From IMG/VR virus record IMGVR_UViG_3300011432_000014: 41,644 nucleotides of DNA, one strand, 5' to 3'. The notes under the pieces were generated by a model. The model ran no database searches. It saw only the letters and a list, made by a program, of their open reading frames with translations, and was not told the origin of the DNA. This DNA comes from a virus. Of the stretch, positions 16,472 through 37,827 are shown in pieces (the stretch's first letter is position 1; the number at the start of each line of letters is the position of its first letter). Made by a program: the position numbers and the translations under genes.

Positions 16472-19400
16472 ACTTTAAAGTATTTAATTGTAGGTAATGT
16501 ACCATTAAAAAATGTCTTATATCTTGTAATGTAAAGAACATAAGTGTTTCCGCCAAACGTAACTGTTCTTGCTTCGAACAAATCTGTTACTGCTCCAATT
16601 TTTCCTGAATTGTTTGTGTCTACCATATCAGTCCAATTTGTTTTCAATTCTCCAGCCCAATGAGCCATCCAAAAATAAATTGGTGCAGGTTGATTAGTGT
16701 ATTGAATAACTATATCTTGCTTGAAATTGTCCGTAATGAAATCAACGAATGTAGGTGTACTTGAAGCATTTGTAGTAACTCCATAATAAATCTTTTTGCT
16801 TTCCTCGCTAACTCCAGGAAATGGTTTGAACTCGGTAAACGCATATCCGCTCGGATTTTCTTTTTGAGCAAAGTCGATTGAATAGTAATACATTGGATAA
16901 CCTGCAAGTCGGTCAACAGGTTCAATTCTTGCATCTTTGGCAATGACATAACTAACTCCTTGAATATACAAATCGTCTAATAATATTGTCAAACAAATCT
17001 TATTGTACAGCCAATCTGGGATACCAGTTCCATTGCCAAATAAGACAGTTCTTCGCTTTGTATTAATTGACTTGAGGTTGTCAAAGTTTCCTGTTTCGTC
17101 CTCATTGATAAGGAGTTCATTTGTACCAATCCATTTTTCAACGAGACCTTCAATTCTGATTTTACTTCTAAAACCGTTTGAGAACACAGTACCAACTTTG
17201 TTTTTAGGACTTCCTGCATCAATGAGTATTGTGCCATAATGTTTTACTTTTATTGAAACAAGTTCAGATATTGCTCCAACCATATCATCAGCAAACAACA
17301 TAAAATAGAAGTCACCTTCACCCAAAACTGAAAGGTCAACAACTACTTGTTTTAATTGCTCTGGAGCATATATTGGTGCAGGTGATACATCTACATAAAT
17401 ATATGAATCTACGAATTTGCCACAACCATCGTACACACCTAAACTTATTACTTTAGGTGTTTCAAAATTAGCAATAATTTGGTCTACGAGAATATCCGTC
17501 GTTTGGAGCTTTTGAATATAATCTGGTTGTGTCGACCATCTTTCGTTCCTATTCTCAAACCAATCATCGTGTAATTCTGCCCATTCCGACTCGTGGTCGT
17601 AACGTACCATGTGGAGCGTGTTATAGTCACTCCTGTAAACTGAGTCTGCCATATTAATAAAGATTGTTCCAGAATTTGATAAATTCATTATGTTAGATAA
17701 TGGAGTTACTGTTGACACGAGTAAGCTCCATCGCTCGACATTATTAGATACATCCTCGACAGACATTTTACCTATCGGCAAACAATGTATCTCAATTCCC
17801 TGATACGTAAACTTCACTAATCCACCTGAAGCGAAGTGTTTAACTTGTTCCACAAAAAAGAAAGGTGTTTCAACCGTACAACTAAAGATATATGGATAAA
17901 ACAATGAGGTATCAGGATAGTCAGATAACCGAACATCTGTATTTTCTTTTGTGGTAACTCCAGCAAGCGTCGTTGAAAACGTTCCGTTCTTATCTGCCGT
18001 TTCAAACTTTAAAACTGTATCTGGTTGTTGATAAAATATAGATTTCCAATAATCCATTCTGCTTAACAAATTATGTTTCGGAGTTAGTTCTGTATTAAAT
18101 ACAGAATAACCACCTGTCACAACAAGTCCAGTTTCCATTGTCCAATTGTTCTGATAGTATGTCTTATCGTTGTCGTAATTGTTCTCGCTGAAACCAATAA
18201 TGAATAACTTTTCATTAGGTAACATTGATATAGTTACATCGAAAGGTATATCATACCGAACAAGAGCATTGTACAAAGTCATAGGTACAATCTCATATAT
18301 AGTTCCATTGTTCTTTTGAAAATACCATTTGAATGTTTCTGCAAATCCAAACATTACAGAAATCGTTCCTCTAATTCTGAATACGTTAGTTCCAGATTCA
18401 TTTCTTAATATCCACCTGTCGTCATTGGTTGCTAAATCAAAACCAACTAAATCTTGATAAGGTGAATTACCGGAAGTGTATCCAGATACTATGCCTGAAT
18501 TACTTACAAAACTAACTCCCAATGTAGTTTCTCCATCAGGCGGAATGTTTGCTGCATTGTGACTGTAGGTTATGGTGTTTAAGGTATTTAATCCCTTGTC
18601 AATGATAACTCCTTGAATATCGTCGTAAGCCGGTCTGTTGAGTTTAAATCCAACTATTTTAACTGCAACATTTCTTATTTCTAATGAAGTCGATATAATG
18701 TGGTTTCCATTAGGGATAGGTGTTAGTGTATCTCCTGAAGGTTTAGTCAACGGCACAACTTGAAATGCCCAACTGCCATTAGCATCAGCAGTTGCACTTC
18801 CTATTTCTGTTTCCCAATAGTCAAGATAAATATGCACAATTGTAGTAGGTAACGCAACACCTCTTATTAATGGTGTATTGTCTTGTATCGGCATAAATCC
18901 AGTCCAATAACCAACCGAAGTAATAAGGGGAATATCAACATGAGAATTAACGGTAAACGAAATAGAATAAGCACCTATTGACATGGTATTTATCCCATTA
19001 GGCAAAGGTACTTTAAAACTAAATCTACAATTACCATCTCCTGTGATATCCCCTTGATTTACTCCATTTATCACCAGTGTTTCAGTTGTTCCAGCTTTGA
19101 TGAAACCCATAACTAAAGGCATATTGTCATAAAGAAAATCTCCATCGTGTACATTCTCGAAAGACGGAGATACAGGCCTGTCCATAATAGTAACAGTCCT
19201 CGCCGAAATGACTCCGGTTAAATCAGTAAATGTTAACTCAATTGTGTGAACACCTGTGCTAACATCAGCTACATATGCAGATAAAGGTGTTTGAATAGTA
19301 TAACCAAATTCTCCTGTTGGGTTTGCACTACTTGTTCCATCAAGAACTCCATCCACATAAATAAAAAAATTCATACTCGGTTGACATACACCTCGAATAA

Positions 19401-21174: not shown

Positions 21175-21188
21175 TTAGTTTGATTTTA

Positions 21189-21205
21189 CCACAAAAAGAA
21201 AAATG
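21189..21205 (-). promoter_or_regulatory. Conserved element CATTTTTCTTTTTGTGGTAAA, 14 nt upstream of the 21174 start
   Basis: Plus strand CCACAAAAAGAAAAATG. Confidence 0.55.
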
Positions 21206-21215
21206 TTTGTTAAAT

Positions 21216-24200
21216 TTATTCTAAACCGTGAAGTATCCTGTTTTGATATAGTTTTGAGCCCAAGTCAACATTGATTTTAGGTTTGAAAACATTCTTGATT
21301 TCTCTTTTGGATTTTGCAATTGCCTTACCAAGATAAAGTGTTTGCGCCCAAGACGAATCTTGCTTTTCCGGTATGACAGGTATCTTATACAATGGTATAA
21401 GTTCCGTTCCAGCAGATAAATGTTTTATCGTAGGTTTGTCTGCAATGTACGCAGCACGTCTTGGCTCTTTAACCAATTCAGCACCTGCTTCACCAAACAA
21501 TGCAAGACCATCTGATTTGTGAATACCACCTTCAGCATAAGCCGGTATTTTAGTTGCCAATGCAGTAGCAAGTTGAGCAGCACCGAGCGCACCTATGGAT
21601 ATTGCTAACGGAATACCAAGACCACCTTCTATTTTTAATGCGTTGACTATTGCAACAGTAGTTCCTAAGATGATTTCTGATATAGCAACTTCTTTGTTAA
21701 ACACTGCTTGGTCGTGTTTTATTTTTCTTTCTTGGCGAGCAAATTCTTCATCCCTTGCAGCTTTCTGAGCTTGCAATTGAACTTCGTAGGCGTTCTTCTC
21801 TTTTTCTGACAAGGTAGAACGTTGAAGTGCCTCAATCTCGGCATCGGCAGTTTTGTCATATTCTTCTTGTAATTTTTGAAGTTGTTCAATACGAGATTCA
21901 AATGCAGCATTTCCGATTGTCTGAATTAGATTAAACATTTCTTTCTCAAATGCTTCCCAATTAGCTTCAATTTGTTTTTGAGCTTCTTCATCAGCTTTTA
22001 TACGTTTGACAACTGAATCTTGTGCAGTTTTCAATCTATGTTTAGCTGCTTGGTCATTAGTATCGTCAATCTGTTTTTGCATCTTATCATATTCATCTTT
22101 AAAACCTTTAGCCAAACCACGAGCTGTATCACCGCCACCAGATGCTATTGAATAAATTGCAGTTTGAAGTTTTGCCTTAACATCATTTTGCAATCCTGTT
22201 AATCTTTTAATCTCTTTTTGGTCGTCAACTTCTTGAGCTTTATCTATTTTAATACGAGAGTTGAATTCAAGTTCTTCAACTTTCTTTCTGTATTCCTTAT
22301 ACGATATTTCTTTTTTGTTGAATGATTCTGTTAAAATAGTAAGCTCTTTTGTTGCTACATCTTGTGCAGCAGAAACATTTTTATCAGATTGAAGTTTGAG
22401 TTGTTTATATTGTATATCAAACCATGAAGTTGCAATATCATAAGATTGTTTGTAAAGGTCATTTTGAATATCAGCAATTTTAGCATTTTTCTTTGATTCT
22501 AGTTCAGCTAATGCTTCTTTAAGAAAGTCTGGTGCAACGGTCTTTTTTGCTTTTGCAACATCTGCATTATATTGAGTTATTGCCGCATCCTCTCTATCTT
22601 GATTGTATTTTGCATAAGCAGATATACGAGTATCAAAAGTATTTTGCTCATTTTCCATTACTTTTTTATCTGTAATTTGATGAATACGTATTTGTTCTTG
22701 TGCAGCTAATAATTGATATTCTGAATGTTTAAGATAAGAAGTTAATACTATCTTATTTACATCTTCAGCCAAATCATTTTCTATCTTTACAACTGCAACG
22801 GCATAATCTTTACGTGCCTGAAGTATTTCAGTTTCAGTTGCATTTGCATTAGATAAAACAGAAGTTCTTTTAGCTAAAGCTATATCAGCTTCTGCTTTTG
22901 ATATTGCTCTTGTTGCAGCAATCCTTTGCTCTTCAGTAGACAACACATCATTTAATATCTTTTTATTATTATCTTTAATAATATTCAACCTTGCTTCTTC
23001 ATTTATCAATGTTTGCTTTATTGCTTCTGTTGAAAAATATTTAGCTCGTTTTGCTCTTTCTTCATCCATTGCAGCTCCTGCATCTGTTTGCCCTTGAAGT
23101 GCATCGGTAATTGTACCCAATCTATCTTTTGCAGCATCAGTTTTACTATCAAGTAATTTCAACTCTTCATCAAGTCTTTCTCTATTTTTTTTCATGCCTG
23201 CAACAGCTCCAGATTTTGCTATCGCTTTAGCAACAAATCCCTCGAATGGTAATTTTTCTTCTTGTTTAACTTTTATCTTTTTATCTTGTTCTTCTATTTT
23301 ATTTACTATTTTTTGTCTTTGCTCTGTAAAAGATTCAAGTTGTGTTACCAATGTAGCCTGTTCGGCAAAAGTAGATTTCGTGTCTGTAACACGATTATCA
23401 GCTCCTTCTTTTACAGCCTTGTTATATTTATCAATATCATCAGTTTGCTGTTTGTAATTTTCGCCACCAGCAGCAGCTAATTCTTTTTGTCTTTTAAGAT
23501 AATCAGCATTATGTTTATCGCTTACCTCTAAAGCATCAGCTTGGTCTACTAATGCTTTATTCATGTTTTTTATACTTTCAGTCATTCTATTTTCATATTC
23601 AACAGCATCTTTCAAACTATCTTTGAAAAAACCAAGCTCTTCAACTACTTTCATAATTGCTTCACCTATAAGACCAAATATGCCAGCAATACCAAGTCCA
23701 GGAATAATATAAGCTAAATTACGAACAAGACTTAAATTATTAGTTAACATTTTTCCAAGATTCTCCATTGCACCGCCACTTGCACCAGTCTTACCAACTG
23801 CAGTATTAATTTTATCTATTGCTGTTGATACACCAGTTAATTCATTTGCAAGCTCATTTCGAGCAGCTTTAGGTGCACCGCTAATAAGAGCATTTTGATA
23901 TCTTACTCTTAAATCGGCTCTTTGTTGCAAAAGTCTCTTATATAAATCATTTTCTTTAAGCATAGCCCTTCCATTAGCTTCAGCTGTTTGGTTTGCATCT
24001 TTAATCTTGTTTTTATTTTCTGTTTTTTCTTCAGCTACTAATTTTTTAAACCCAGACTCGTATTCATTATTAGCCTGAGTTTTTTTCTTTTGGTTTGCCT
24101 TTTCTTCTTCAGCTATTAATTTATTAAGTTCTCTTTCGTCTTCGAGAAGTTTCATCCTCTGCTGATACCTTGCGTTATTCTCTTGAGCATTTTTAATCAT

Positions 24201-24557
24201 CTCCTTATTCACTTCTTGCAATTCAACCTTTGTAGCAACAGCGGCTTTAGCAACATCGCTTTCTGATGCAGCAATTTTAGCATTATTAGAAGCCACTTGA
24301 GCAGCCAAGTCGTTATGAGTCTTCATTGCAAGACCCAAATCTGTCATTTTTACCGTAAGTCCTTCTACTGCAACTTGTTGAGCTTTAGTTGCTGTAATGA
24401 GTTCTGATAACCCAGAAACATTTATAGGCGAAATTTTCATTCCGTCATACTTCTTGAGTTCATTATATAACCCTACGACTATCGCTTCTACCTGTGCTGC
24501 CTGTTCAGTAAGCTCTGGAATATTAAATCCTACTGAGAGCAAGTTTTGCTGACTCAT
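21216..24557 (-). CDS. Tail tape measure protein
   Basis: 1113 aa, long coiled-coil K/E/A/Q-rich; hydrophobic segments NLAYIIPGLGIAGIFGLIGEAI and GGLGIPLAISIGALGAAQLATALA; lies between the chaperone genes and the distal tail genes. Confidence 0.9.
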   Translation of the reverse strand: MSQQNLLSVGFNIPELTEQAAQVEAIVVGLYNELKKYDGMKISPINVSGLSELITATKAQQVAVEGLTVKMTDLGLAMKTHNDLAAQVASNNAKIAASESDVAKAAVATKVELQEVNKEMIKNAQENNARYQQRMKLLEDERELNKLIAEEEKANQKKKTQANNEYESGFKKLVAEEKTENKNKIKDANQTAEANGRAMLKENDLYKRLLQQRADLRVRYQNALISGAPKAARNELANELTGVSTAIDKINTAVGKTGASGGAMENLGKMLTNNLSLVRNLAYIIPGLGIAGIFGLIGEAIMKVVEELGFFKDSLKDAVEYENRMTESIKNMNKALVDQADALEVSDKHNADYLKRQKELAAAGGENYKQQTDDIDKYNKAVKEGADNRVTDTKSTFAEQATLVTQLESFTEQRQKIVNKIEEQDKKIKVKQEEKLPFEGFVAKAIAKSGAVAGMKKNRERLDEELKLLDSKTDAAKDRLGTITDALQGQTDAGAAMDEERAKRAKYFSTEAIKQTLINEEARLNIIKDNNKKILNDVLSTEEQRIAATRAISKAEADIALAKRTSVLSNANATETEILQARKDYAVAVVKIENDLAEDVNKIVLTSYLKHSEYQLLAAQEQIRIHQITDKKVMENEQNTFDTRISAYAKYNQDREDAAITQYNADVAKAKKTVAPDFLKEALAELESKKNAKIADIQNDLYKQSYDIATSWFDIQYKQLKLQSDKNVSAAQDVATKELTILTESFNKKEISYKEYRKKVEELEFNSRIKIDKAQEVDDQKEIKRLTGLQNDVKAKLQTAIYSIASGGGDTARGLAKGFKDEYDKMQKQIDDTNDQAAKHRLKTAQDSVVKRIKADEEAQKQIEANWEAFEKEMFNLIQTIGNAAFESRIEQLQKLQEEYDKTADAEIEALQRSTLSEKEKNAYEVQLQAQKAARDEEFARQERKIKHDQAVFNKEVAISEIILGTTVAIVNALKIEGGLGIPLAISIGALGAAQLATALATKIPAYAEGGIHKSDGLALFGEAGAELVKEPRRAAYIADKPTIKHLSAGTELIPLYKIPVIPEKQDSSWAQTLYLGKAIAKSKREIKNVFKPKINVDLGSKLYQNRILHGLE

Positions 24558-25104
24558 CTTGTAATTGTTTAATTATGAGTGCTAATTCTTCAATGGTCGT
24601 TTTATCTCTATCAATATGAAAACCCTGCTTATTAAACGAATTGAGCATCTTTATAAATTCATGCCTTGTTTGTGTTTCTGTTTTTACTTCTTCTTTTTTT
24701 ACTTCTTTCAATTTACCAAATTCAAATTCTTGATTTTTTAAATCCAATTCTTTTGCTCGTACCATACCAGAAACTCTTTTCAATTGACTCATGAATTTTT
24801 TCTCACTTCCATCCCATGTTATCTTGAAACCGTTCTTTTCAAACAAATCTAATCCATCTAAAAAAGGTTTATGAAATTCTTCAACATACATAGTTTGCAT
24901 TGCAACTAAACATTTGAGAGTATATATAGTGTTTTTCAAATAGTTAATATATGTAAACAATTCAAACTCTTTAGAACTGTATAATCCAGCCAAATCTATA
25001 TATTCAGAGTACGCTTCATCAAAATCTTCTTTTGAAAGTTCGGAATAGTCTTTACCAAACCACGCTCTCATAAAAGAATTTATAGTAATGTTTTCTACTT
25101 TCAT
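24523..25104 (-). CDS. Putative tail assembly chaperone
   Basis: 193-aa ORF immediately upstream of, and overlapping, the tape measure start. Confidence 0.5.
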   Translation of the reverse strand: MKVENITINSFMRAWFGKDYSELSKEDFDEAYSEYIDLAGLYSSKEFELFTYINYLKNTIYTLKCLVAMQTMYVEEFHKPFLDGLDLFEKNGFKITWDGSEKKFMSQLKRVSGMVRAKELDLKNQEFEFGKLKEVKKEEVKTETQTRHEFIKMLNSFNKQGFHIDRDKTTIEELALIIKQLQDESAKLALSRI

Positions 25105-25580
25105 TCGTAGAACAATTGATTTATTACTTGTTGAATATCTGGAGCAATTTCATTTTGATATAAATATTGCTCAGATTCATAGCTTAAATTTATTATAGCA
25201 TCGCCACTTCTTTCTTTAATTAGCCAAATTAAAGTATTATTACTTTTAACTTCGAAATCATCATCTCCATTAAATTGCACATAAAGAGAATTGTAAAACT
25301 GTCCACTCATATAGTTTGTGATATGGTCTGTAATAGAACCAATACCTTGACCAAACACATCTTTTCTCCATAAAGTATATCGAGCATAATTATATGTCTT
25401 TTGTCCACGCCTCGTTAAATATACTCGTTCATCGTTTCCATCAAAACCTTTTGCAAGTTGAGATTGCACCATTTTAACAATCTCTTTTTCCTCTAACTTC
25501 AACTCAACCTCTACAACCTCTGGTATTTGAGGTGTGAAATTCATTAATTTCTTTATCAATTTTTCAAGACCGAACAACAT
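25101..25580 (-). CDS. Putative tail assembly / tail-associated protein
   Basis: 159-aa ORF between the major tail and chaperone genes; ATGA overlap at 25101-25104. Confidence 0.45.
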   Translation of the reverse strand: MLFGLEKLIKKLMNFTPQIPEVVEVELKLEEKEIVKMVQSQLAKGFDGNDERVYLTRRGQKTYNYARYTLWRKDVFGQGIGSITDHITNYMSGQFYNSLYVQFNGDDDFEVKSNNTLIWLIKERSGDAIINLSYESEQYLYQNEIAPDIQQVINQLFYE

Positions 25581-25592
25581 ATCTTAAAATTT

Positions 25593-25624
25593 AAAAAAGA
25601 GCGCACCGCATTTAAGATGCGCTC
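25593..25624 (-). terminator. Intrinsic terminator/attenuator after the major tail gene
   Basis: Minus strand GAGCGCA-TCTTAAATGCGG-TGCGCTC-TTTTTT. Confidence 0.75.
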
Positions 25625-25656
25625 CCCAAAAATCAAAAATGGACAAATGCAAAGAA

Positions 25657-26586
25657 TCAAGGCGTTGTTACTGTAACTGGAGAAATAGCAATTCCGTAAA
25701 TATCATCAGCAGCCATATCTGCAGGTGTTGCACCAGATACCGTATATGCAGTTGCAGCAGTAAACGCACCAGCAAGTTCAATGGTAGTTCCAAGAACAGC
25801 AGCAGTTACAGGAACATCTGCACCAGTCGCAGCATTAATAACTGTAAAACCATCTGCCATTGCAACTAAATCAGCACCAAACTCAGCAGTTGCATCATCT
25901 CCGCAACAAGCATCTACTAAACCGACAATCAATTCGGATGTAGTATGAGGTCCAACATCAGTAAGTTCAAGGTCAATCAAACCTGTCAAGTCGAGCAACG
26001 GTTTAGCATCTTGCAAAAGAACCGCATTATCTACAAAATAATCAGGCATGTAACCTAATTGGAAATAAGACTTAGCTGGATTTTTCAAATCTGCCATGTC
26101 AATAGCTGGAGCAAACAAAGACGCTTTAAGACCGCCAAAAGTTCCGTCATGGTTGTCTTTGCATACAAGGTTTCCCTTAATGTCAACTTCCAATACTCTC
26201 ATATCTGCATTATTGAAACTCTTTAAAACTTTGGCAAAACAAAGTCCACCATCAGTAGTAGAGAATAACTTTGCGTATTGAGAATAACTAACGAAAATAA
26301 TAGTACCATCGTCAAGCGTAACAGTGTTATCTGTTCCCTTTGTATTAACCAATCCGTTTATAGGAATCTGGTTTCCGAACAAAGGGTAAATCTTATCGGG
26401 GGCATCTGCATGTACCCAATCTGTAAAAGCGGAAAGTATATCTGGATTATTTAAGTCGGCAAGCGTAAACTTGAACTTCTTATCCACGATAAACAACATT
26501 GCTGTTGCCGCAGGAAACAGATTAGAACCAGTGCCTGTGTTTTTAAGTTGTGAGCTTGTTTTACAAGCTCTTATTACAGCACTCAT
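25657..26586 (-). CDS. Major tail protein with C-terminal A/T/V-rich Ig-like extension (start refined to MSAVIRA at 26586)
   Basis: Lies between the connector genes and the chaperones/tape measure, followed by a terminator; C-terminus ...TAAVLGTTIELAGAFTAATAYTVSGATPADM. Confidence 0.65.
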   Translation of the reverse strand: MSAVIRACKTSSQLKNTGTGSNLFPAATAMLFIVDKKFKFTLADLNNPDILSAFTDWVHADAPDKIYPLFGNQIPINGLVNTKGTDNTVTLDDGTIIFVSYSQYAKLFSTTDGGLCFAKVLKSFNNADMRVLEVDIKGNLVCKDNHDGTFGGLKASLFAPAIDMADLKNPAKSYFQLGYMPDYFVDNAVLLQDAKPLLDLTGLIDLELTDVGPHTTSELIVGLVDACCGDDATAEFGADLVAMADGFTVINAATGADVPVTAAVLGTTIELAGAFTAATAYTVSGATPADMAADDIYGIAISPVTVTTP

Positions 26587-26588
26587 AT

Positions 26589-27104
26589 CTAACAATATTT
26601 TGTTGAGTTAATTAAAAATTGTACGTTATCTAAGTTAATGCAATCCACGAAGTCGTTCATACCAGATATAGGAACTGTACCAAGAACATCTACCTTAGTG
26701 TGAATAATTGTATTCGGGTCTTTAGAACTCATGTGGTCGTCCTTTGCAAAATTTCTAAGAAAGCTTTCGTAAACAGGATATAGTATTGTCTTGAAAACGT
26801 TTTGATAACGAGCCATAGGTTCATTGTCAGGATTAGTCAGCGCAGCAATCGTAATTCTACGAATATTGCAATCTGCATAAAGACCTGTTACGCCACGCCT
26901 CTCAACAAACGGCATGTACAAAGCAATGAGTACATACTTGCTGCCTTTCAGCGTTACGCTATTGTCTTTATCTTTCAAGTTTTGAAGGATATTGATAGCA
27001 TCTCCATAAGCATAATTTATTTCAATACCAAGTTCAAGTGCCGTATTTGCAACGATACTCCCTATAATATCTACTACGAAAACGCTATCTTCTTTCTTAG
27101 CCAT
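26589..27104 (-). CDS. Head-tail joining / tail terminator-like protein
   Basis: 171-aa ORF immediately upstream of the major tail gene; preceded by the conserved element. Confidence 0.45.
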   Translation of the reverse strand: MAKKEDSVFVVDIIGSIVANTALELGIEINYAYGDAINILQNLKDKDNSVTLKGSKYVLIALYMPFVERRGVTGLYADCNIRRITIAALTNPDNEPMARYQNVFKTILYPVYESFLRNFAKDDHMSSKDPNTIIHTKVDVLGTVPISGMNDFVDCINLDNVQFLINSTKYC

Positions 27105-27117
27105 CTTTTTTGTTTTT

Positions 27118-27134
27118 CCACAAAAAGAAAAATG
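27118..27134 (-). promoter_or_regulatory. Conserved element CATTTTTCTTTTTGTGGAAAA, 13 nt upstream of the 27104 ATG
   Basis: Plus strand CCACAAAAAGAAAAATG. Confidence 0.55.
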
Positions 27135-27143
27135 ATTATCCGA

Positions 27144-27653
27144 TTACAAGTCAAAGTCGTTCACAGGTCGCAGCATCCATAAGTCTACTGGACTCCATTC
27201 AGGGTAAATGTCCAAATTGTTCTCCATATAGATTACAAACTCTCCCATTTGTGCAGAACAAGTGTTCCACGCTTCCATGTACTTCATATAAATAGGCATG
27301 ATTTCAGCAGAGTCACCCTTTGGTCTCACTGTTCCAATTCCACTATTCCAAATTTGTTTATCTTTAATCCAATAGCAATAAACGTAGTAAGCAATAAGAC
27401 TTCCTTTTACAGTATCTGAAATATTGTAAACGAGTCCTTGCCACTCGCCTATGCCATCAATCAAATCAACAAATCTTTGAGTAGTGTCATCTTCATCAAA
27501 GCTCGTCCAAAGTTCATAACCGAGCATCTGTTTTAACAGTTGTTTCTCGTGCTTGGCTATGAATAAATTCAAGCTTTCTTCTATTTCCGGTTTGGAAGTA
27601 TTTGGGATATTTATATCTCCAACGAAGAACGAAACGTCAATTAGATTAGGCAT
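27144..27653 (-). CDS. Head-tail connector/adaptor-like protein
   Basis: 169-aa ORF between the capsid and tail genes. Confidence 0.45.
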   Translation of the reverse strand: MPNLIDVSFFVGDINIPNTSKPEIEESLNLFIAKHEKQLLKQMLGYELWTSFDEDDTTQRFVDLIDGIGEWQGLVYNISDTVKGSLIAYYVYCYWIKDKQIWNSGIGTVRPKGDSAEIMPIYMKYMEAWNTCSAQMGEFVIYMENNLDIYPEWSPVDLWMLRPVNDFDL

Positions 27654-27671
27654 TGCATTTAACTTTAAAGG

Positions 27672-27881
27672 TTAGCTTTCATCAGAACCATCTTCATCTG
27701 GCTCTTCGTAATCATCAGGTGTTTCTTGTGTCATTAAACCTTTCTCAATAAGCCTTTTTGCAGCATCTGGGTGCATCCTTACCGCTAAGCCTTGCTTGTG
27801 ATAAATGTTCTTTTCAGTAGGGAACACTCTGATGAAATTTTCACTGTAGTTGTCTAAAGTGACTACCTTTTCCTTTGCCAT
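27672..27881 (-). CDS. Small hypothetical protein with acidic tail
   Basis: 69-aa ORF downstream of the major capsid gene. Confidence 0.55.
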   Translation of the reverse strand: MAKEKVVTLDNYSENFIRVFPTEKNIYHKQGLAVRMHPDAAKRLIEKGLMTQETPDDYEEPDEDGSDES

Positions 27882-27937
27882 TATATTAAAATTAAGAGTT
27901 TAAAAAATTGGTTTAGATTTAGCTTTCCATATTACGA

Positions 27938-29302
27938 TTAAGGAGTTGCAGTTATTGCTGCAAGTACATTGGCAAAGCTATCATAAATGAAAGCGCCAGT
28001 GTACTGAGTATTAAAGAACTGATGAATTGCCATTTCACCAAGATACGTAATCAGGTTCTTGGTAAAGTCATCATTTTCCCAACCAAATGTGAGAATAAGT
28101 CCTTTGTAAATAAGAACCCTGTAATACTGCATAAATCCTGCTTGGAAGAAACCTACAGGGATACCTGGCTCTTCTACAACAGCAGCACCTGCAATTGTTC
28201 TTCCATCAGAAGTCACGAATGGAGGAAGCATGTAGTTACCACTGGTAGTAGCTTTGGTCAAATCCATGTTTGCGCTATCTACAGGATTAATGAATATAGT
28301 TATCGGGCCAGTGAGATTACCACTCCTTAACTGTGCAACGGCAGCCCTAAGAGCGTCCATGTAGTTAGGATTGGTAGTTTCAACACCAACCAAAGTGTAA
28401 GCAACAGACAAATTCCTGATACCAGTAGGCACTGTTGCAGAACCTGCACCTGCCAATAATGCGCTATTCAATGCAATAAGAATCTGATATCGAAGTTCAT
28501 CTTTAATCAAAGTTTCCATACCCTTAACGTCCCAAAGAAGTTCCTGTGCAACCTTATCGGTAGCGGCAATCTTCTTGTAGTTGGATATGGCAGTTGTTAA
28601 CTGAAAAGAAATTGCAGGTTTCAAAACTCCAGGCCCTACAAAACCGGCAGCTCCCTGAGGATTGGTTTTATTTACCCAAGCGTAAACAGGAGAATCAGTT
28701 GCGCCTTTGGTTACGTAATCCCAAAAAGTAGGCTGAACCCTTACCACATCATGCACTCCTGGCTCGTAAAAAGGCACTGGTAAACCAGTTCCAACATACG
28801 TATTAGAAGGCAGCATTGGGCTCGTTGCAACACGAGTATTAAGTTCCAATGGTTCTAAAGCCATTTTCTTTTTGTTGCGTATGCCTTCAAGAGCAGTTTT
28901 ATTGGTTTCAACCCAAGCTTCAATCTGTCCACGCAAAGTAAGCTGTTTGTCACCTGCTTTATTTGCACGAGTTTCAAATTCAAGCATTTGTTCATCAAGT
29001 TTAGAAAAACGAGCAAGAACTCCAGTTTTTTCATCACACAGGGAACGAACAGCTTCAAGAGGAAGTGTTTTCCAAGCTTCGCTCATTTGTTCAAACTGTT
29101 TGTAATTAGCATCACTTTTAATTTCCTCCTTTGCAGCCTGACGAACTTCTTTCAAAAGTTGCTTCTTCGCTTCTTCATCTTCGTCACTTCCAGAACCGCC
29201 GCCTTCTCTGTGATGAGCCATCCGAAAAGCTGTATGCCTCTTGGTTGGAAAGAATGAGGAATTATCATGCCCACTTGTTAAGTGGAAGAATTTTCTTTTC
29301 AT
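27938..29302 (-). CDS. Major capsid protein, HK97 fold
   Basis: 454 aa; ATGA overlap with the prohead protease; N-terminal coiled-coil delta-like segment; GPGVLKPAISF and the overall pattern fit the Phage_capsid family. Confidence 0.85.
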   Translation of the reverse strand: MKRKFFHLTSGHDNSSFFPTKRHTAFRMAHHREGGGSGSDEDEEAKKQLLKEVRQAAKEEIKSDANYKQFEQMSEAWKTLPLEAVRSLCDEKTGVLARFSKLDEQMLEFETRANKAGDKQLTLRGQIEAWVETNKTALEGIRNKKKMALEPLELNTRVATSPMLPSNTYVGTGLPVPFYEPGVHDVVRVQPTFWDYVTKGATDSPVYAWVNKTNPQGAAGFVGPGVLKPAISFQLTTAISNYKKIAATDKVAQELLWDVKGMETLIKDELRYQILIALNSALLAGAGSATVPTGIRNLSVAYTLVGVETTNPNYMDALRAAVAQLRSGNLTGPITIFINPVDSANMDLTKATTSGNYMLPPFVTSDGRTIAGAAVVEEPGIPVGFFQAGFMQYYRVLIYKGLILTFGWENDDFTKNLITYLGEMAIHQFFNTQYTGAFIYDSFANVLAAITATP

Positions 29303-30066
29303 TTTTTAAAATTTTTTAATAAGTAATTATAATCAATTACAGTAGTCGGCTTCTTTCCGCCAAGTGCTCTCTCACGTGGAGTTTGCGGCTCGGTTTCCAA
29401 AAGTGTTTTGTGTCTTCTAAACAATGTTCGTGCTTCAAGTTGGTCTTTGCGAGGAAGGCATTTAATAAATGCTTCAATCTCGTCATTCAACTCTTCAACC
29501 GCTTCATCTTTGTCCTGTTTATTGCGCAGCGCATAGGTAAAAGGGTCTGCTGCAAGTGAAACAGGACTTATTTCAAACAAACTCATCTCCAATACGATAA
29601 GGCTTTCAGTAGCCTCATCATATTCTAATTTATCCCAAACGTAGTTAAAACCAATAGAAAAATTATCTACTGTTTTGTTACGCAGGTGAATAAGAGTTCT
29701 ATCAGCATAGTCTACTTCATCAAAAGGATTAGTTCTGAAACGTAATCCAACTTCATCTTGCTCTAATGTTTCAAACAAGGCAAGAGGCTCTCTTCCATTA
29801 TGAAAATTAAGCATCTTAATAGGCATTTTTGCATTGGCTTGAGGTCCACGCTCGTTTATACTTTTAGATGCACATCCTTTTACGAATTGCTCTCCGTAAT
29901 CATTACGAGTATTCCATGTAACTCCATAGCCGGCCACAATACGATTCTCAAAATCGCTCGCCATACCTTCAGCGAGTCTACCGCCTTCGTTAACTGATAC
30001 ATTAGAATACTGAATTGGAGCTGCACGCTTCTTCAGTTCTGCAATCTTTGGATGAAGTAGTTTCAT
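29299..30066 (-). CDS. Prohead maturation protease (HK97 / S78-like)
   Basis: IVAGYGVTWNTRNDYGEQFVKGCASKSI...MLNFHNGREPLALFE; lies between the portal and capsid genes. Confidence 0.8.
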   Translation of the reverse strand: MKLLHPKIAELKKRAAPIQYSNVSVNEGGRLAEGMASDFENRIVAGYGVTWNTRNDYGEQFVKGCASKSINERGPQANAKMPIKMLNFHNGREPLALFETLEQDEVGLRFRTNPFDEVDYADRTLIHLRNKTVDNFSIGFNYVWDKLEYDEATESLIVLEMSLFEISPVSLAADPFTYALRNKQDKDEAVEELNDEIEAFIKCLPRKDQLEARTLFRRHKTLLETEPQTPRERALGGKKPTTVIDYNYLLKNFKK

Positions 30067-30079
30067 TTTCTGAGTTTTA

Positions 30080-30095
30080 CCACAAAAGAAAAATG
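30080..30095 (-). promoter_or_regulatory. Conserved element CATTTTTCTTTTGTGGTAAA, 13 nt upstream of the protease ATG
   Basis: Plus strand CCACAAAAGAAAAATG. Confidence 0.55.
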
Positions 30096-30098
30096 TTG

Positions 30099-30383
30099 TT
30101 AAACTGGTTCGTCTGGATATACCTCTTTATACGCTTCTTGTATATCGGTTAAATACTGGTCTGCAAGTTCAACCATGCCTTTTGCGTATTCATGGCTTTC
30201 TTCCTTAATCTCTTCTACTGCATCAGCTACTTCGTCTTCATCATCTGGTTTTTGTTCAATATCTGTTGCAGCAGATTCAAGTTGTGCAATGTAATCTTCT
30301 GTAGTTGCCCTTGCACTGATTCTAAATGCGTCACTTAATGCGAGTAGCTTTTGCGTGAAAAGCTTTGCTTGTTCAATAGCCAT
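30099..30383 (-). CDS. Acidic hypothetical protein
   Basis: 94-aa ORF rich in D/E (KPDDEDEVADAVEEIKEESHE) between the portal and protease genes. Confidence 0.6.
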   Translation of the reverse strand: MAIEQAKLFTQKLLALSDAFRISARATTEDYIAQLESAATDIEQKPDDEDEVADAVEEIKEESHEYAKGMVELADQYLTDIQEAYKEVYPDEPV

Positions 30384-30401
30384 TTTATTTGATTTTAGAG
30401 G

Positions 30402-31760
30402 TTACTGTTGATTTGCCGGAGCTTGTTCCGGTTCAGGATTTAAAGGAGGCGTAGGAGGAGGAACAGGCATAGAATAATATTCATCTCCACCTTCAACTGT
30501 ATCTAATTCCAGTGCCTGAAGATATTGATTCTTTGTAATGATACCAGTCTTATATTGAATATCAAGAGCTTCTGTACGATACTTTAAACCTTGTCCATTC
30601 GCTAACACAGCATCTTGCAACACAGGTATATCACCGAAGTAACAAGTCACATTAGTTTCGAAATAAGTAGTATACTTGAGCATATCCCGATTATTTTCAG
30701 GAATAGACACATTATTAAGTAACCAACGTTCTGAAGAAGTTCTATTTTCATACGTAGCATTTTTACCAGACATTAACTCGGCAGGGTAGCCGTATCTATC
30801 GCATATAGAATCTATACCCTGCCTAATTGTTGCTTTGGTATCTAACTCCTGTACATTATAACTCATAGGATTCCATTTCAAGCCGTGCCGAGTAACTACG
30901 TATTGGAATTGAGACCAAGATAGTCCGTAATTACTCAAATCGGTTTGAACTTCCAATTTTTCTTTTGGGGATAAAGGTACATATCCAGCAACAGGGTCTT
31001 TGGATGAGTCTTGGCTGATAAATCCAAGCGGACCTTTCTTACGAAGCAGCACATTATCTGCTTCCATTGCTGCCATAATATTAGATATTGCCCACTCGAG
31101 TCCTGCAATCTTAGAAAGTGGTAAACCAAAACACGAAGTTGCGCTCATATACCCATCTCTTACTAACATGATTTTTTTGGCAGGTATATTAAAAGTAAGT
31201 CCTTGTTGGTCGTCATACTCCCATTCTGAAATAGGATTAGGGGACTTTATTAAACTAAACTTTTCGTTTTCAACGGGAGTTAAAAAGAGAGGGTTTAGGT
31301 TCCAGAAATAAGAGGATGATTTATCTGGCTCGGACGGAAACTCCATTATGTAGACAGGACAGTAACCGTAGACTTTTTTATAAATCATTTGCTGACCTCT
31401 AAACTCGTACCAATCCTGCATAGGATTGGGGTTCTGCATTCTTCTTTTTACAGCTTTACCGTAACGAGTAGTATCGTAATCTTTGTTGTCATCAAGTACC
31501 TCGATGTATCCATTAAGGTCGGCATTGGCTTGGCGGTCAATTACAGACGCTAATGGAGAGCAATAGAGGTACGCCCAGTATTGCGCTTGCTTGTTTTGCA
31601 AGTTCTGCCACACAGCACTTTGCCCTGTAAGCAAAACATCTCCATCTCCGTTTAAGGGAATGAAGCCGACATTAGTGCTTGGCATTAGATTAGCCATTGA
31701 ACCAAAGATGTTAGACATAGGGTTTGTCAAGCTAACTAACCCCTCGTACTGATTTCTCAT
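30402..31760 (-). CDS. Portal protein
   Basis: 452 aa; position terL -> portal -> protease -> capsid; Pro-rich C-terminal tail. Confidence 0.8.
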   Translation of the reverse strand: MRNQYEGLVSLTNPMSNIFGSMANLMPSTNVGFIPLNGDGDVLLTGQSAVWQNLQNKQAQYWAYLYCSPLASVIDRQANADLNGYIEVLDDNKDYDTTRYGKAVKRRMQNPNPMQDWYEFRGQQMIYKKVYGYCPVYIMEFPSEPDKSSSYFWNLNPLFLTPVENEKFSLIKSPNPISEWEYDDQQGLTFNIPAKKIMLVRDGYMSATSCFGLPLSKIAGLEWAISNIMAAMEADNVLLRKKGPLGFISQDSSKDPVAGYVPLSPKEKLEVQTDLSNYGLSWSQFQYVVTRHGLKWNPMSYNVQELDTKATIRQGIDSICDRYGYPAELMSGKNATYENRTSSERWLLNNVSIPENNRDMLKYTTYFETNVTCYFGDIPVLQDAVLANGQGLKYRTEALDIQYKTGIITKNQYLQALELDTVEGGDEYYSMPVPPPTPPLNPEPEQAPANQQ

Positions 31761-31774
31761 TTATTTGGTTTTTT

Positions 31775-31791
31775 CCACAAAAGAAAAAATG
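31775..31791 (-). promoter_or_regulatory. Conserved element CCATTTTTTCTTTTGTGGAAAA, 14 nt upstream of the portal ATG
   Basis: Plus strand CCACAAAAGAAAAAATG. Confidence 0.55.
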
Positions 31792-31792
31792 G

Positions 31793-31981
31793 TTATGAAT
31801 TGATTGAGATTGCACAGGAAAAGTATTTCTTTGGCAGCACTGCGATAACTTCTTCTCCTTGCCTTAGTACAACGATGTCTTCGATAGTCATTACCTCGTC
31901 ACATATACAGAAAAACTTCTCGCCGTACCATGCTTTTCGATAAACGTATAGTTTTCGCTTGGGTTTTTCTTCTTCCTTCAT
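31793..31981 (-). CDS. Small hypothetical protein
   Basis: 62-aa ORF; ATGA overlap with the upstream gene. Confidence 0.5.
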   Translation of the reverse strand: MKEEEKPKRKLYVYRKAWYGEKFFCICDEVMTIEDIVVLRQGEEVIAVLPKKYFSCAISINS

Positions 31982-32163
31982 AACTCGGTTATGATTTTAA
32001 AGAACTCTTCGTAACTGTATTCTTTATCCTTTACGATAACGCATTTTCGAGGGATTTCCTGAAATCCAAGAAAGCACTTGTATGGACTATCAGGAAGCCT
32101 TACTACAAAAAGAAAATAGTGTTCAATTTCACCTTTCATTATTAGTTCGTCGGTATGTGCCAT
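31978..32163 (-). CDS. Small hypothetical protein
   Basis: 61-aa ORF. Confidence 0.5.
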   Translation of the reverse strand: MAHTDELIMKGEIEHYFLFVVRLPDSPYKCFLGFQEIPRKCVIVKDKEYSYEEFFKIITEL

Positions 32164-32324
32164 AATAGGTTGAATATGTAGATGATTGCAATAACAAAAG
32201 CAATGACTCCAAGTATCTTTTTGAATTCAGGCCCAACTACATTGTTAGGCAAATACCTGATTGCTGCAATAACTAATGCAAGTATAACAATAACGATAGC
32301 GAGGTGTAATAGTATGTGTGCCAT
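32142..32324 (-). CDS. Small two-TM membrane protein (holin-like or exclusion-type candidate)
   Basis: Two hydrophobic helices, HLAIVIVILALVIAAI and ILGVIAFVIAIIYIFNLL. Confidence 0.55.
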   Translation of the reverse strand: MAHILLHLAIVIVILALVIAAIRYLPNNVVGPEFKKILGVIAFVIAIIYIFNLLWHIPTN

Positions 32325-32341
32325 CTTAGCGAAGTTTTATT

Positions 32342-32358
32342 CCACAAAAGAAAAAATG
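32342..32358 (-). promoter_or_regulatory. Conserved element CCATTTTTTCTTTTGTGGAATAAA, 17 nt upstream of the 32324 ATG
   Basis: Plus strand CCACAAAAGAAAAAATG. Confidence 0.55.
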
Positions 32359-32442
32359 GTTGGGCAGCCGGCTTATCTGATTCGACTAAGGGAATGTTTT
32401 CATTCTTTCCGCTTTCGTTTTGTGGCTTCCAGAATCCTTTCG

Positions 32443-34880: not shown

Positions 34881-36074
34881 CACGTAATATGTTAACAAAA
34901 ACACAAAGGATAGGCTTTAACAAACCTTTAACTTTTGGCCCAAAACCCATATTTATATAATGAAACATGTATCCGCACGAGTATAAGGAATTTCAACGAA
35001 TAAAAAAATTAAAAAACCCTTAAGAACGAAACGTTAACATTCCTTTAACATTCCCGTCTTTTTGGGCAATTTTTGGAATTTTTGAAACCGTTGTAACTCG
35101 CTGATAATCAATACTTTACACATATAAAAAATACCAAATCTCCCCAAATTTGCCCTCAAATGATGTGTCTGGTATGATTGCGCCAGAATGGGGGTTGAAT
35201 GCCGTAATGGGGCGCAAAACGACCTTTTTGGGGCATGACTAAATAGCCGGTAATTTTGGCAGGATTAAGATTTGATTAAAATTCCAGATTTATTTGGAAG
35301 TTACAATACCAAATTTCGGTAGTTAATATTATGTTAAAGTCCAGCCGTCCGGTGACGCAAGCCATTAACAAACCTTTAACATAAATCTTTGTTAAATTCC
35401 AGTTTTCTGGTCTATGCCAACTTTCTGGCACGATTTTTGCTGTTAACAAGCTTTAACAAATTCTTAACATTTATTTTTTGGAATTCTCAAAATTTTTTCG
35501 TACCTTTGGGTTACCTTCTTGATTTTGGCGTTAACTTTTCCTTAACAATTACAAACTAAATTTTTCAGCATTTTTTAACAGTTTCTTAACTTAAAAAACG
35601 ATTAAAAAATTCCTACTTAACATAATATCATTTATAGGAAAAATGCCACATTTGCATGTATAACTCATTGAATTTCAATCAGTTACCTACTTAACATAAT
35701 ATATTACATACGGCAGATTAATTATACATTAAAATTTAGATTTTAACTTTTCCTTAACTCCATATTAACAAAAAATTTCGTACCTTTCCTATAAAATCAT
35801 TTTTTCGACCTTAACTAAAATTTAACAATGCCAAACTGACTTTGGCACGGTTTTTGAGCGAGTTAAATTTTAGTTAATTCCTGCCGTTCCCGTTCTGGGA
35901 ATTTTTCCCAACTTGGGAATGAGTCCCACTTTAGGAAAACTAACACTTGTTCGTATACGAAATTTTTCTTAGTACGAAGTGTCTCGTACGTGAGAATTCG
36001 TTTTCAAGATAATTTTAAAAATAAAAAACTAAAATATTTTCAGATGCTCTGTCAGACTTGCTCTCTGAGGCTTT

Positions 36075-36091
36075 CCACAAAAAGAAAAATG
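36075..36091 (-). promoter_or_regulatory. Orphan copy of the conserved element CATTTTTCTTTTTGTGGAAAG, with no ORF downstream
   Basis: Plus strand CCACAAAAAGAAAAATG, 30 nt after the terS stop; faces the non-coding block. Confidence 0.5.
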
Positions 36092-37566: not shown

Positions 37567-37827
37567 TCACGCTGTATCCTTCAGACCAAAAACCAAAACC
37601 TTTCTTTTTTGTGGAGTCGGCTGTCCTAATACTCGCACAACTGCAGGTTTGTGTCCTTTTTTAAAATGCTCTTCAGGCGGATTTTTGAATCTTTCGCTGA
37701 ATTGACCTCTCCGGATATTCCTGATTTCCTTAAGTGACAATCCCCACCTGAGCATTATCTCATCAAGTGGGGATTCAGAAAAGAGAACGTCGTGTATCAG
37801 CGCCGGTGTCTTAATTTTCCTGTCCAT
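37567..37827 (-). CDS. Small HTH-like protein, paralog of 37797..38021
   Basis: HDVLFSESPLDEIMLRWGLSLKEIRNIRRGQ aligns with DDVLRYRLDNAELCEKWGITARDIRKIRRPS. Confidence 0.6.
   Translation of the reverse strand: MDRKIKTPALIHDVLFSESPLDEIMLRWGLSLKEIRNIRRGQFSERFKNPPEEHFKKGHKPAVVRVLGQPTPQKRKVLVFGLKDTA

Follow-up and report, generated by a model that had tools for sequence, protein, structure and literature searches.

A conserved T-run-GTGG signal in an uncultured Bacteroidota-type tailed phage as a possible clade-specific core promoter

Primary-sigma promoters of Bacteroidota combine a -33 TTTG with a -7 box, TAnnTTTG, which is centred at -7 (PMC7366714). The modal leader length in B. thetaiotaomicron is 23 nt. 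In the Flavobacteriia phage phi14:2, which is crAss-like, and its relatives, middle and late genes are preceded by conserved tripartite promoters with -35/-10-like elements, nearly all of them intergenic and sense: 17 of 137 mapped promoters lie in coding sequence, and all but four of the intergenic ones are sense. The late promoters of T4 (TATAAATA), used with gp55/gp33, and the 20-23-bp promoters of T7-type phages are phage-specific and -35-independent; they are compact, highly conserved, lineage-variable and rich in excess information, and lie directly upstream of late genes with no upstream element. Mycobacteriophages offer another comparison: cluster A has stoperators and cluster K start-associated sequences, both of them asymmetric sites of 13-14 bp that number in the tens and either fill very short gaps between genes or overlap start or stop codons. 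They point the same way relative to transcription and evolve together with a phage protein, in temperate phages whose repressor is known. Among primases, ORF904 of pRN1 recognises GTG via its helix-bundle domain, and NrS-1 PrimPol (AEP, helix-bundle and helicase) uses 5'-GTGG/GTGA-3' and 5'-TTTGGTTA-3', starts synthesis at the nucleotide immediately 5' of this motif, yields poly(dA) when given oligo(dT), and is severely impeded in priming by changes to the G-T-G bases (PMC8718748).

The window analysed here, 41,644 nt of an uncultured Bacteroidota-type tailed phage whose host type does without Shine-Dalgarno pairing, carries a conserved 20-base signal, a T-run leading into GTGG and then AAA, of which this phage and its close relatives have about 25 copies per genome. 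Judging from sequence, we tentatively favour, at somewhat below even probability, a clade-specific core promoter that would be independent of a -33 element and read via a putative phage-encoded factor, with antisense copies in the early genes. The nine copies listed by an earlier, sequence-only reading all lie on the minus strand where it had placed them, and its distances from GTGG to the start codon (14, 13, 13, 14, 17, 23 and 28 nt) are correct. The sense copies, with the features needed to place them, are:

41158..41178, minus strand: weaker copy, 28 nt upstream of the ATG of a 175-aa gene and sharing bases with the end of gene 41144-41374
38575..38595, minus strand: copy within the 3' end of ORF 38517-38885, ~140 nt upstream of an ATG at 38437
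36071..36091, minus strand: copy CATTTTTCTTTTTGTGGAAAG, directly past the terS stop codon at the edge of the non-coding hub, 27-32 bits
34513..36121, no strand: non-coding hub, packed with GTTAA-N6-7-GTTAA repeats
32338..32358, minus strand: intergenic copy right after terL, 17 nt upstream of the ATG of a 60-aa 2-TM gene (32142-32324)
31771..31791, minus strand: intergenic copy, 14 nt upstream of the portal ATG (30402-31760), 30 bits
30076..30096, minus strand: intergenic copy, 13 nt upstream of the start of the prohead protease gene (29299-30066, ATG), behind which lies the capsid gene
27114..27134, minus strand: intergenic copy, 13 nt upstream of a 171-aa gene (26589-27104), 28-33 bits
25657-26595: 312-aa putative major tail gene, assigned by position only, after the 171-aa gene
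25627-25596: strong terminator with a 12-bp stem, after the putative major tail gene
21185..21205, minus strand: intergenic copy, 14 nt upstream of the GTG start of a 1568-aa tail/virion protein gene (16468-21174)
17846..17866, minus strand: copy within the 1568-aa gene, peptide TPFFFVEQV
13619..13639, minus strand: copy within the lipoprotein signal-peptide codons of a 90-aa spanin-like gene
7589..7609, minus strand: copy within a 159-aa gene (7356-7835) that also has two antisense copies
4441..4461, minus strand: weak copy, 3' end of ORF 4362-4637, ~100 nt upstream of the helicase ATG
2504..2524, minus strand: intergenic copy, preceded by a short hairpin (GCGAG...CTCGC), 23 nt upstream of the primase-helicase ATG
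307..2484, minus strand: primase-helicase gene, AEP (BT4734-like_N) + PriCT_2 + VapE/D5-type helicase

The motif is of low complexity, and Lys-rich genes have a T-rich antisense strand, so an artefact of chance or composition has to be considered. However, TTTTTGTGG occurs 10 times against 0.92 expected, the 19-mer with at most three mismatches 16 times against 0.32, and PWM matches of at least 15 bits are found 14 times in sense and 6 times in antisense, where order-3 and order-5 Markov models and codon shuffling all predict 0.2-0.4 per strand. Of the long T-runs, 12 of 15 lead straight into GTGG on the coding strand and 6 of 29 on its complement (expected <0.1), an excess of more than 60-fold on both strands, and the motif as a whole is enriched 30-50-fold or more over all null models tried. 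The sequence-only reading had named a similar frequency in composition-matched sequence as grounds for abandoning the motif; the observed frequency is far above that expectation and the motif is kept in relatives, which together refute a chance origin and leave it a practically negligible probability.

TTTG is invariant among the sites, an A stands 3 nt further on in 63-80% of them, and GCGG replaces GTGG in 14% of copies. It had been claimed that the A of the host -7 box never occurs, and it is indeed found in none of 76 distinct sites. The pyrimidine run is 11-12 nt long, with a single C in the T-run whose position is lineage-specific, a point not noticed earlier; this lineage-specific form suggests a reader encoded by the phage. 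The edges of the motif are sharp, its span is ~20 nt and positions -25..-10 carry no information, as expected of the footprint of a -35-independent promoter. Its information, ~24-27 bits by our sum of per-position values, is more than the phage genome alone would call for (11.9 bits) and in keeping with a need to stand out from a host genome (18.8 bits), as is typical of phage-specific promoters. With TTTG placed over the host -7 box, the predicted start is the A after GTGG and the leaders would be 13-17 nt against the 23-nt mode of B. thetaiotaomicron, short rather than "nearly leaderless", as had been proposed. The motif thus resembles the Bacteroidota primary-sigma promoter in the distance of TTTG from a purine start and in the SD-less host type, but it never has the conserved -7 A, lacks a -33 element, adds the pyrimidine run and GTGG, and has intragenic and antisense copies. 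Two true host-type promoters, overlooked by the sequence-only reading, lie in the hub near 34546 and 34879, where they read TATCTTTGTGG and have a TTTGTGG core in common with the motif.

The plus (antisense) strand also carries good copies, which had been missed:

40880..40900, plus strand: within the 175-aa gene
39384..39404, plus strand: within gene 39204-39461; L129/L150 also have a copy in antisense whose 3' half likewise reads CTTGTGGAAATCG, a likeness by sequence between positions not aligned to each other
37598..37618, plus strand: within gene 37567-37827
17938..17958, plus strand: within the 1568-aa gene; retained in L143, absent from L138/L139
11313..11333, plus strand: perfect 19/19 match (11315-11333) in the last codons (PQKEK*) of gene 11312-11575, 25-26 bits
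7497..7517, plus strand: GTGA variant, within gene 7356-7835
4397..4417, plus strand: in ORF 4362-4637; retained in L129
376..396, plus strand: within the 3' part of the primase gene

Antisense copies make up ~37% of the total and copies inside genes ~70%, two features that had escaped the sequence-only reading and that count against a promoter, given how few of the phi14:2 promoters are intragenic or antisense. The top-scoring copies are nevertheless sense and intergenic, and intergenic space, ~12% of the sequence, holds 23 of 61 sense copies (p=1e-6) as against 4 of 36 antisense ones; the internal sense copies show no concentration upstream of gene starts. Sense and antisense copies stand at 28:6 in the late/structural arm and 14:25 in the early/replication arm (p=1e-4), a polarity likewise missed before, the bias switching around the non-coding hub. 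The motif had been described as a late-gene element, a description too narrow for copies that also precede the primase gene and the 175-aa early gene and that are abundant in antisense in the early arm.

Every close relative has the motif, as an island within otherwise diverged spacers, and at 57-83% aa identity it is kept though the spacers are unalignable. The terS-adjacent copy, correctly reported before (36075-36091) as having no ORF downstream, is followed ~45 nt further on by an AT-rich stretch and keeps this place in L004/L147, L007/L150 and L130. The post-terL copy keeps its position in L139 (674), L138 (3056) and L143, that at 17846..17866 is retained in L138/L139 with the C shifted by a TTT/TTC codon change, and that at 4441..4461, which converges on the antisense copy 4397-4417, is retained in L130. 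In L130 the helicase-primase intergenic copy has the opposite orientation, a point against the promoter reading. The "fixed" spacing of 13-17 nt holds in this genome but widens to 5-41 nt in relatives; its constancy here follows from minimal spacers made of a stop codon, the motif and an A-rich initiation region of ~13 nt. L151/L152, which have the late module in common (33-52% aa identity) and a different replication module, have no motif, and their late genes overlap without such spacers, so internal late promoters are not needed by the module; this, too, speaks against a promoter.

These distributions bear on whether the motif acts in RNA, whether as a site of RNase processing or as a U-rich enhancer of translation in an SD-less host. 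In this genome seven sense copies, in or beside spacers and 13-28 nt upstream of a start codon, would fit such a leader signal, as would the host type and the A-rich TTAAAAA-like leaders of other genes. It cannot explain the antisense copies, the predominance of internal ones, the conserved post-terS copy with no ORF or the variable spacing in relatives, and RNA structure at the sites does not rise above shuffled sequences (z -0.75 to +1.5); were the motif also a promoter, the U-run would fall outside the transcript. As a general explanation an RNA-level signal is thus largely refuted, and we consider it very improbable.

A fourth possibility, absent from the sequence-only reading, has become a serious and indeed the main rival, unlikely as we still judge it: the motif could be the recognition and initiation site of the phage's own AEP-PriCT-2-SF3 primase-helicase. 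The helical domain would bind GTGG on the single-stranded template and primer synthesis would start on the T's directly 5', giving an A-rich primer of ~11 nt with one G. Both strands would need copies, more of them on the lagging-strand template to each side of an origin placed in or close to the hub, and the copies would be perfect only in spacers, where coding imposes no constraint. The candidate reader is already encoded here. Its architecture (AEP, helical domain, SF3 helicase) is that of pRN1 and NrS-1, and its N-domain is predicted to have the AEP fold: residues 1-180 of the AF2 model have pLDDT >90, with AEP enzymes as the best PDB fold matches. The sites, too, are alike in having a GTGG core with a T-rich template just 5' and in lying on both strands irrespective of genes. 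Such a role would account for the two-strand enrichment, the differing reading frames, the intragenic gain and loss of copies, the orientation polarity, the ORF-less hub-side copy with its AT-rich stretch, the inverted copy in L130, and the absence of the motif from L151/L152, where the late module is kept and the replication module differs. However, the primase sites described are 3-8 nt long, and no over-representation or polarity in genomes is known for them, whereas ~20 positions are under selection here, more than a fork-coupled enzyme should need, and the best copies lie just upstream of genes. Spacing is irregular, with three perfect copies within 2.3 kb followed by a 5.9-kb gap, GCGG occurs despite the G-T-G sensitivity of NrS-1, and phages whose primases are 33-46% identical lack the motif (714 kb surveyed around 80 loci). 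Moreover, early-arm polarity is only ~64%, skews at four-fold degenerate sites show no clean replication arms, and the PriCT-2 region is poorly modelled.

One could also envisage a phage dsDNA-binding protein that does not mainly recognise promoters, such as a genome-wide, stoperator-like regulator or roadblock or a replication/packaging organiser, although we regard this as rather improbable. An asymmetric ~20-bp site that each genome has ~25 times, in both orientations and often within very short spacers or across stop or start codons, would suit such a protein, and the lineage-specific variants suggest co-evolution with it. The genome has another repeat/protein system in the hub, whose repeats differ between relatives while the motif stays constant, so the motif is not read by the hub-repeat binder. 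Unlike stoperators, the motif flips orientation while transcription does not, and neither a repressor, an integrase nor a recognisable DNA-binding regulator was found among the scanned ORFs; the -7 box resemblance and the +1 geometry would be left unexplained.

The phage-specific promoter and the site of a phage factor, two of the three options put forward by the sequence-only reading, still lead, while its third, the RNA signal, is disfavoured. It had also reported no recognisable sigma factor or late activator, which is borne out: among ~60 ORFs scanned (PHROGs and/or Pfam), neither a sigma factor, an activator nor an RNA polymerase was found by sequence, and the structure of one candidate was checked without result. 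The promoters of T4 late and T7-type phages, similarly compact and variable between lineages, differ in having a dedicated, recognisable sigma factor or RNA polymerase gene, and the motif departs from them in its large excess of antisense and intragenic copies. With phi14:2 the motif would have in common its conserved place upstream of middle/late genes, the host class and a host RNA polymerase as reader; it has no sequence similarity to those tripartite promoters.

In the promoter reading that we favour, the 3' part of the motif (TTTG, TGG, A) would stand where Bacteroidota promoters have their -7 box and start site, with the pyrimidine run replacing the invariant A of TAnnTTTG. Host RNA polymerase, directed by a putative phage specificity factor or by a sigma factor in modified form, would initiate at the A after GTGG. 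The late intergenic sense copies (2-TM, portal, protease-capsid, 171-aa and putative major tail, distal tail) would then yield transcripts with 13-17 nt leaders that top up a long late operon. Transcription from the post-terS copy would enter the repeat-rich hub, where it might activate an origin or yield a non-coding RNA, and the antisense copies of the early/replication arm may produce late antisense RNAs that damp early genes. Copies do precede sensible expression units, as at 2504-2524, behind the hairpin, and at 27114-27134, where a unit of the 171-aa and putative major tail genes ends in the terminator.

The motif, represented by CATTTTTCTTTTTGTGGAAAA, is real, conserved and unusual. All the copies listed in the sequence-only reading, together with their distances to start codons, proved correct and, as regards chance frequency, the motif lies far above every null model that we tried (dinucleotide shuffles, order-3 and order-5 Markov models, and codon shuffling within genes); against dinucleotide shuffles, 10 occurrences were observed for 0.92 expected and 16 for 0.32 expected. 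The most telling enrichment test is the one conditioned on long T-runs, which are directly followed by GTGG in 12 of 15 cases on the coding strand and in 6 of 29 on the other, with fewer than 0.1 expected for each. The logo of 76 distinct sites reads (A)TTTTT-YY-TTTTG-(T/c)GG-AAA, its G-GG positions being preset by the site-selection pattern, and GCGG stands in place of GTGG in 14% of copies. About 20 positions are conserved, with an information content of roughly 24-27 bits when the per-position logo values are summed. Full-text literature searches targeted at the motif or at Bacteroidota phage promoters returned no description of it.

The window, with a G+C content of 36%, is essentially an entire phage genome, and all of its credible genes lie on the minus strand. 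Along the direction of transcription, small early genes and an HNH gene are followed by terS (36121-36588), a 1.6-kb non-coding hub (34513-36121), a 245-aa gene, terL, small genes, portal, protease, capsid, tail genes (including a 1113-aa tape measure and a 1568-aa protein) and lysis genes, and then by small genes, an exonuclease, an HNH gene, a methyltransferase, a helicase and the primase-helicase. The 245-aa hub protein is also encoded on another contig, of 41,662 bp. None of 50,697 phage records matches the window at the DNA level, and a portal-profile search of 185,579 genomes yielded no prophage. The nearest isolated phages infect Flavobacteriia and show merely 27-35% amino acid identity (32-35% for the primases of Cellulophaga phi46:1, Nonlabens P12024S and Flavobacterium mymlan6-1); most genes of the window are preceded by A-rich leaders of the TTAAAAA type, none by a Shine-Dalgarno sequence, and the non-coding DNA holds a few TAnnTTTG boxes. 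From the hosts of these isolates, the leaders and the boxes, a Bacteroidota host can be soundly inferred. Hardly any transcription or replication signals have been mapped in Bacteroidota phages, whose hosts have unusual promoters and no Shine-Dalgarno pairing; here, a sharply defined 20-nt signal occurs clade-wide, in about 25 copies per genome and with no recognisable reader encoded.

The likeliest function of the motif, which we put forward tentatively, would be that of a clade-specific promoter. Bacteroidota sigma-A promoters carry a -7 box TAnnTTTG with a conserved A and a -33 TTTG/TTG element, and the motif has neither. The earlier remark that its core resembles the -7 box but never has the A is borne out by all 76 distinct sites, in which the A position is occupied by T or C and TTTG is invariant. 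Each position from -25 to -10 holds at most 0.36 bits over the same 76 sites, and the motif is thus without a -33 element; inspection of the sites likewise revealed no TTG at -33-type spacing, with the element expected 17-21 nt upstream. In the B. thetaiotaomicron TSS atlas, the -7 box is centred at -7, the 5'-UTR mode is 23 nt and 3.7% of leaders are shorter than 10 nt (PMC7366714). When TTTG is aligned on the host -7 box with this geometry (PMC7366714), +1 would fall on the first A after GTGG, about 4 nt past the G of TTTG, and an A is found at the expected start position in 63-80% of sites. The transcripts had been anticipated to be nearly leaderless; the -7 box alignment would give leaders that are indeed short, 13-17 nt in the window, but not absent. 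In its extent (about -16 to +3), its lack of a -33 element, its excess information and its lineage variants, the motif agrees with a phage-specific promoter of the -35-independent kind.

The local gene context fits the promoter reading. Downstream of one sense copy come a 171-aa gene, then the putative major tail gene, and finally a strong terminator; another copy lies between a hairpin and the primase gene; and the conserved copy that follows terS is directed into the hub, over an AT-rich stretch. This last arrangement resembles the origins of T4, which combine a promoter with an unwinding element.

Relatives with 57-83% identity were found by protein-guided searches on viral contigs from soil and sediment-type sources, and the motif is present in all of those recovered, within spacers whose flanks cease to align. 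A single C slides inside the T-run, and its position is lineage-specific:

Form of the T-run in the window and in two relatives
The window: T5CT5/T6CT4
Viral contig 3300020020_000106: T6CT4
L131, a locus on the viral contig of a relative: T7CT3

The lineage-specific position of the C is concerted evolution, as would be expected if the reader of the motif is phage-encoded. No copy occurs in the isolated Flavobacteriia phages phi46:1, P12024S and mymlan6-1, in 80 loci (714 kb) around primases of 33-46% identity, or in two viral contigs, L151 (3300045996_000661) and L152 (3300020577_004994); an exact-motif scan of genomes and viral contigs gave, among the matches listed, scattered single ones only. 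L151 and L152 have their terS-to-tail genes in common with the window (33-52% amino acid identity) and an early/replication module unrelated to that of the window, which amounts to a clean module swap, and their late genes overlap, without spacers. In the relative L130, a 158-aa ORF occupying the terS position has a perfect copy 30 nt ahead of it; between the helicase and primase genes of L130, the motif copy is inverted and directly adjoins, on the upstream side, the ATG of an inserted HNH gene. This HNH endonuclease gene (2390-2720 of L130), placed between the helicase and primase genes, is apparently frameshifted.

To take stock of the strand distribution, copies were counted with a 21-nt matrix on the window and ten loci from relatives. 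Where phage-specific promoters would be essentially sense-only and upstream of genes, the census holds 61 sense copies (on the gene-bearing strand, minus in the window) and 36 antisense copies, with about 70% in coding sequence. Spacers contain 23 of the 61 sense copies, a strong concentration (p=1e-6), and 4 of the 36 antisense ones, which show none; even so, copies inside genes exceed expectation by far on either strand. Differing reading frames are used by the antisense copies (STKKK, PQKKK, TTKEN and others), which places the constraint on the DNA rather than on the peptide and rules out a peptide-level cause. Among relatives, internal copies are gained and lost via substitution, with no indels. 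The ratio of sense to antisense copies is 28:6 in the structural arm versus 14:25 in the early/replication arm (p=1e-4), and 18:8 versus 11:21 when only intragenic copies are considered (p=0.017). The switch points coincide with early/late gene boundaries, and the orientation of the motif flips though all genes are co-oriented. Two elements of the sequence-only reading have to be given up: the spacing to the start codon is not fixed, ranging over 13-28 nt in the window and 5-41 nt in relatives, and the motif is not a late-gene element, as copies also stand before the primase gene and before an early gene of 175 aa. The same census bears on the proposal of an RNA-level or translation-initiation signal, for which sense-only copies at a fixed distance would be expected; with antisense and internal copies, one copy without an ORF, and no RNA structure at the motif sites or matching Rfam family, this explanation fails.

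Such a strand distribution is also unlike that of ordinary promoters. Mapped promoters of the phi14:2 type are almost wholly intergenic and sense, whereas the motif is often intragenic or antisense. The promoter reading is weakened by this excess of antisense and intragenic copies, by the inversion of an orthologous copy, by the lack of a recognisable reader, and by a sister clade in which the same late module runs without such elements. Polarity and promoter function would be reconciled if antisense late promoters served to damp early genes. If the motif is a promoter, it would represent a new -33-independent class and imply a hitherto unrecognised specificity factor, possibly with antisense shut-off of early genes in a one-directional genome.

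The copies on both strands and within genes are naturally accounted for by a serious and more novel rival, albeit one that we regard as less likely than the promoter. It holds that the motif is a strong recognition and initiation site of the phage AEP-PriCT-2 primase-helicase, with GTGG read on single-stranded DNA and the primer copied from the adjoining T-run, and that the sites, borne by the lagging-strand template, are scattered along two replication arms that meet at the repeat-rich hub. This reading would also explain the polarity (through the lagging-strand template, if the origin lies at the hub), the copy beside the hub that lacks an ORF, and the association with the replication module (in L151 and L152 the late module is kept and the motif absent). 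The primase-helicase of the window has the appropriate architecture, with the Pfam domains BT4734-like_N (AEP), PriCT_2 and VapE/DUF5906 (VapE/D5-type helicase); the AEP fold of its N-domain is weakly confirmed by matches to Prim-PolC, LigD-Pol, S-2L PrimPol and RepB' (probabilities 0.85-0.99, E-values of about 1e-2), and the model of the PriCT-2 part is of low confidence. NrS-1 PrimPol shares this architecture; it uses 5'-GTGG/GTGA-3' and 5'-TTTGGTTA-3', starts on the base directly 5' of its motif and makes poly(dA) from oligo(dT), and pRN1 ORF904 reads GTG via a helix-bundle domain (PMC8718748). In TTT-GTGG, too, a GTG(G/A) core has its would-be initiation template directly on the 5' side (PMC8718748), and an enzyme of the NrS-1/pRN1 type would favour a T-run followed by GTGG, which is the layout of the motif. 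However, about 20 positions are under selection, compared with 3-8 nt in known primase sites, which are short and low in information; moreover, the spacing of copies is irregular, some carry GCGG, phages with 33-46% identical primases lack the motif, and neither bulk GC skew nor four-fold-site skews gave an independent replication signal. If true, this would be the first extended primase site visible as a genome-wide, strand-polarised motif, one that even reshapes protein C-termini and intergenic spacers, and priming specificity could then shape a whole genome. The promoter and primase readings make opposite predictions that can be tested cheaply, with a few oligonucleotides and one purified protein for either, even without a host.

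In the skew analysis, bulk GC skew was monotonic and showed no replication arms, while the skews at four-fold sites differ between the arms in a patchy pattern that looks like an effect of expression or module rather than of replication. Across the head and tail genes (18800-33560), T greatly exceeds A at four-fold degenerate sites (AT4 skew -0.16 to -0.28, about zero elsewhere), which looks like codon bias linked to expression or module origin.

It is also possible that the motif is the site of a regulator that binds double-stranded DNA, of the stoperator kind. Stoperators keep to a single orientation with respect to transcription and occur in temperate phages that have a cognate repressor; nothing of this is seen here: the orientation of the motif is not tied to transcription, and neither an integrase nor a repressor was found in the window.

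As for what might read the motif, the claim that no sigma factor or late activator is recognisable held up, in that about 60 ORFs, scanned with PHROGs and/or Pfam, yielded no sigma factor, activator or RNA polymerase. The dedicated phage-encoded reader that this promoter class would call for was thus not recognised, a small novel factor being possible. A hidden RNA polymerase in the large virion proteins was rejected, since these have no catalytic motif and only Ig-like domains in Pfam; a DxDGD-type catalytic motif occurs in the 119-aa acidic protein alone. That very acidic protein (38885-39244) contains LDFDSDGG, the sole DxDxD-type string in the proteome, and is too small for a polymerase. 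The idea that terS is a hidden sigma factor came from gp33 of Nonlabens phage P12024S, which has a Sigma70_r2 domain and the same map position; the protein of the window is a genuine GP3_package terS, and the window has no gp33 homologue. A further candidate reader is the 245-aa hub protein, with just 5 homologues among 5.8 billion sequences. Its AF2 model, a long coiled coil with a small C-terminal domain, has no fold match in the PDB, and by its order of helices and strands the C-terminal domain looks winged-helix-like to us. The gene (33722-34546) forms its own transcription unit, with a promoter TTTG-N20-TATCTTTG and a 14-bp-stem terminator at 33755-33722. A DnaA box was also considered, as TGTGGAWAA is close to the reverse complement of TTATCCACA; DnaA-box-like 9-mers are unenriched (18 versus 12.4 expected) and no DnaA_C-type protein was found, and the idea was dropped save for one perfect box upstream of terL.

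At that position (33610-33627), the perfect DnaA-box-like TGTGGATAA abuts a -7 box TAAATTTG, and a similar (G)TGGATAA/TGTGGTAA plus AAATTTG lies upstream of terL in L152 (~9935-9960) and L151 (~6981); the arrangement may be an ancestral late-operon promoter with an upstream factor site. The hub contains 38 GTTAA/TTAAC pentamers, versus about 7 expected, as GTTAA-N6-7-GTTAA units, and quite different repeats occupy its position in relatives (CTAACGTTAGTTAG in L007, TGTGGTAAC in L151/L152); such repeats have the look of iterons or operators, specific to each lineage, that belong to an origin or a regulatory region. Elsewhere (~13050-13160 and ~4840-4900), clusters of GTTAAC coincide in part with host-type -7 boxes, namely TATATTTG at 13070-13077 and TATATTG near 4850, and are likely to be regulated early promoters of the small-gene/recombination and helicase-primase blocks. 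A second non-coding gap (37221-37567) has an (AT)9 run and 4-6 copies of the palindromic ATTGATAATCAATACGTTG, with more at ~35095 and ~35661, and could be an operator set or a true unwinding element. A terminator placed after the major tail gene is a classic means of having far more major tail protein made than chaperone and tape measure. In the window, a strong intrinsic terminator (25596-25627) lies directly after the putative major tail gene, and its position is kept in the distant relative L152 (~17560-17640).
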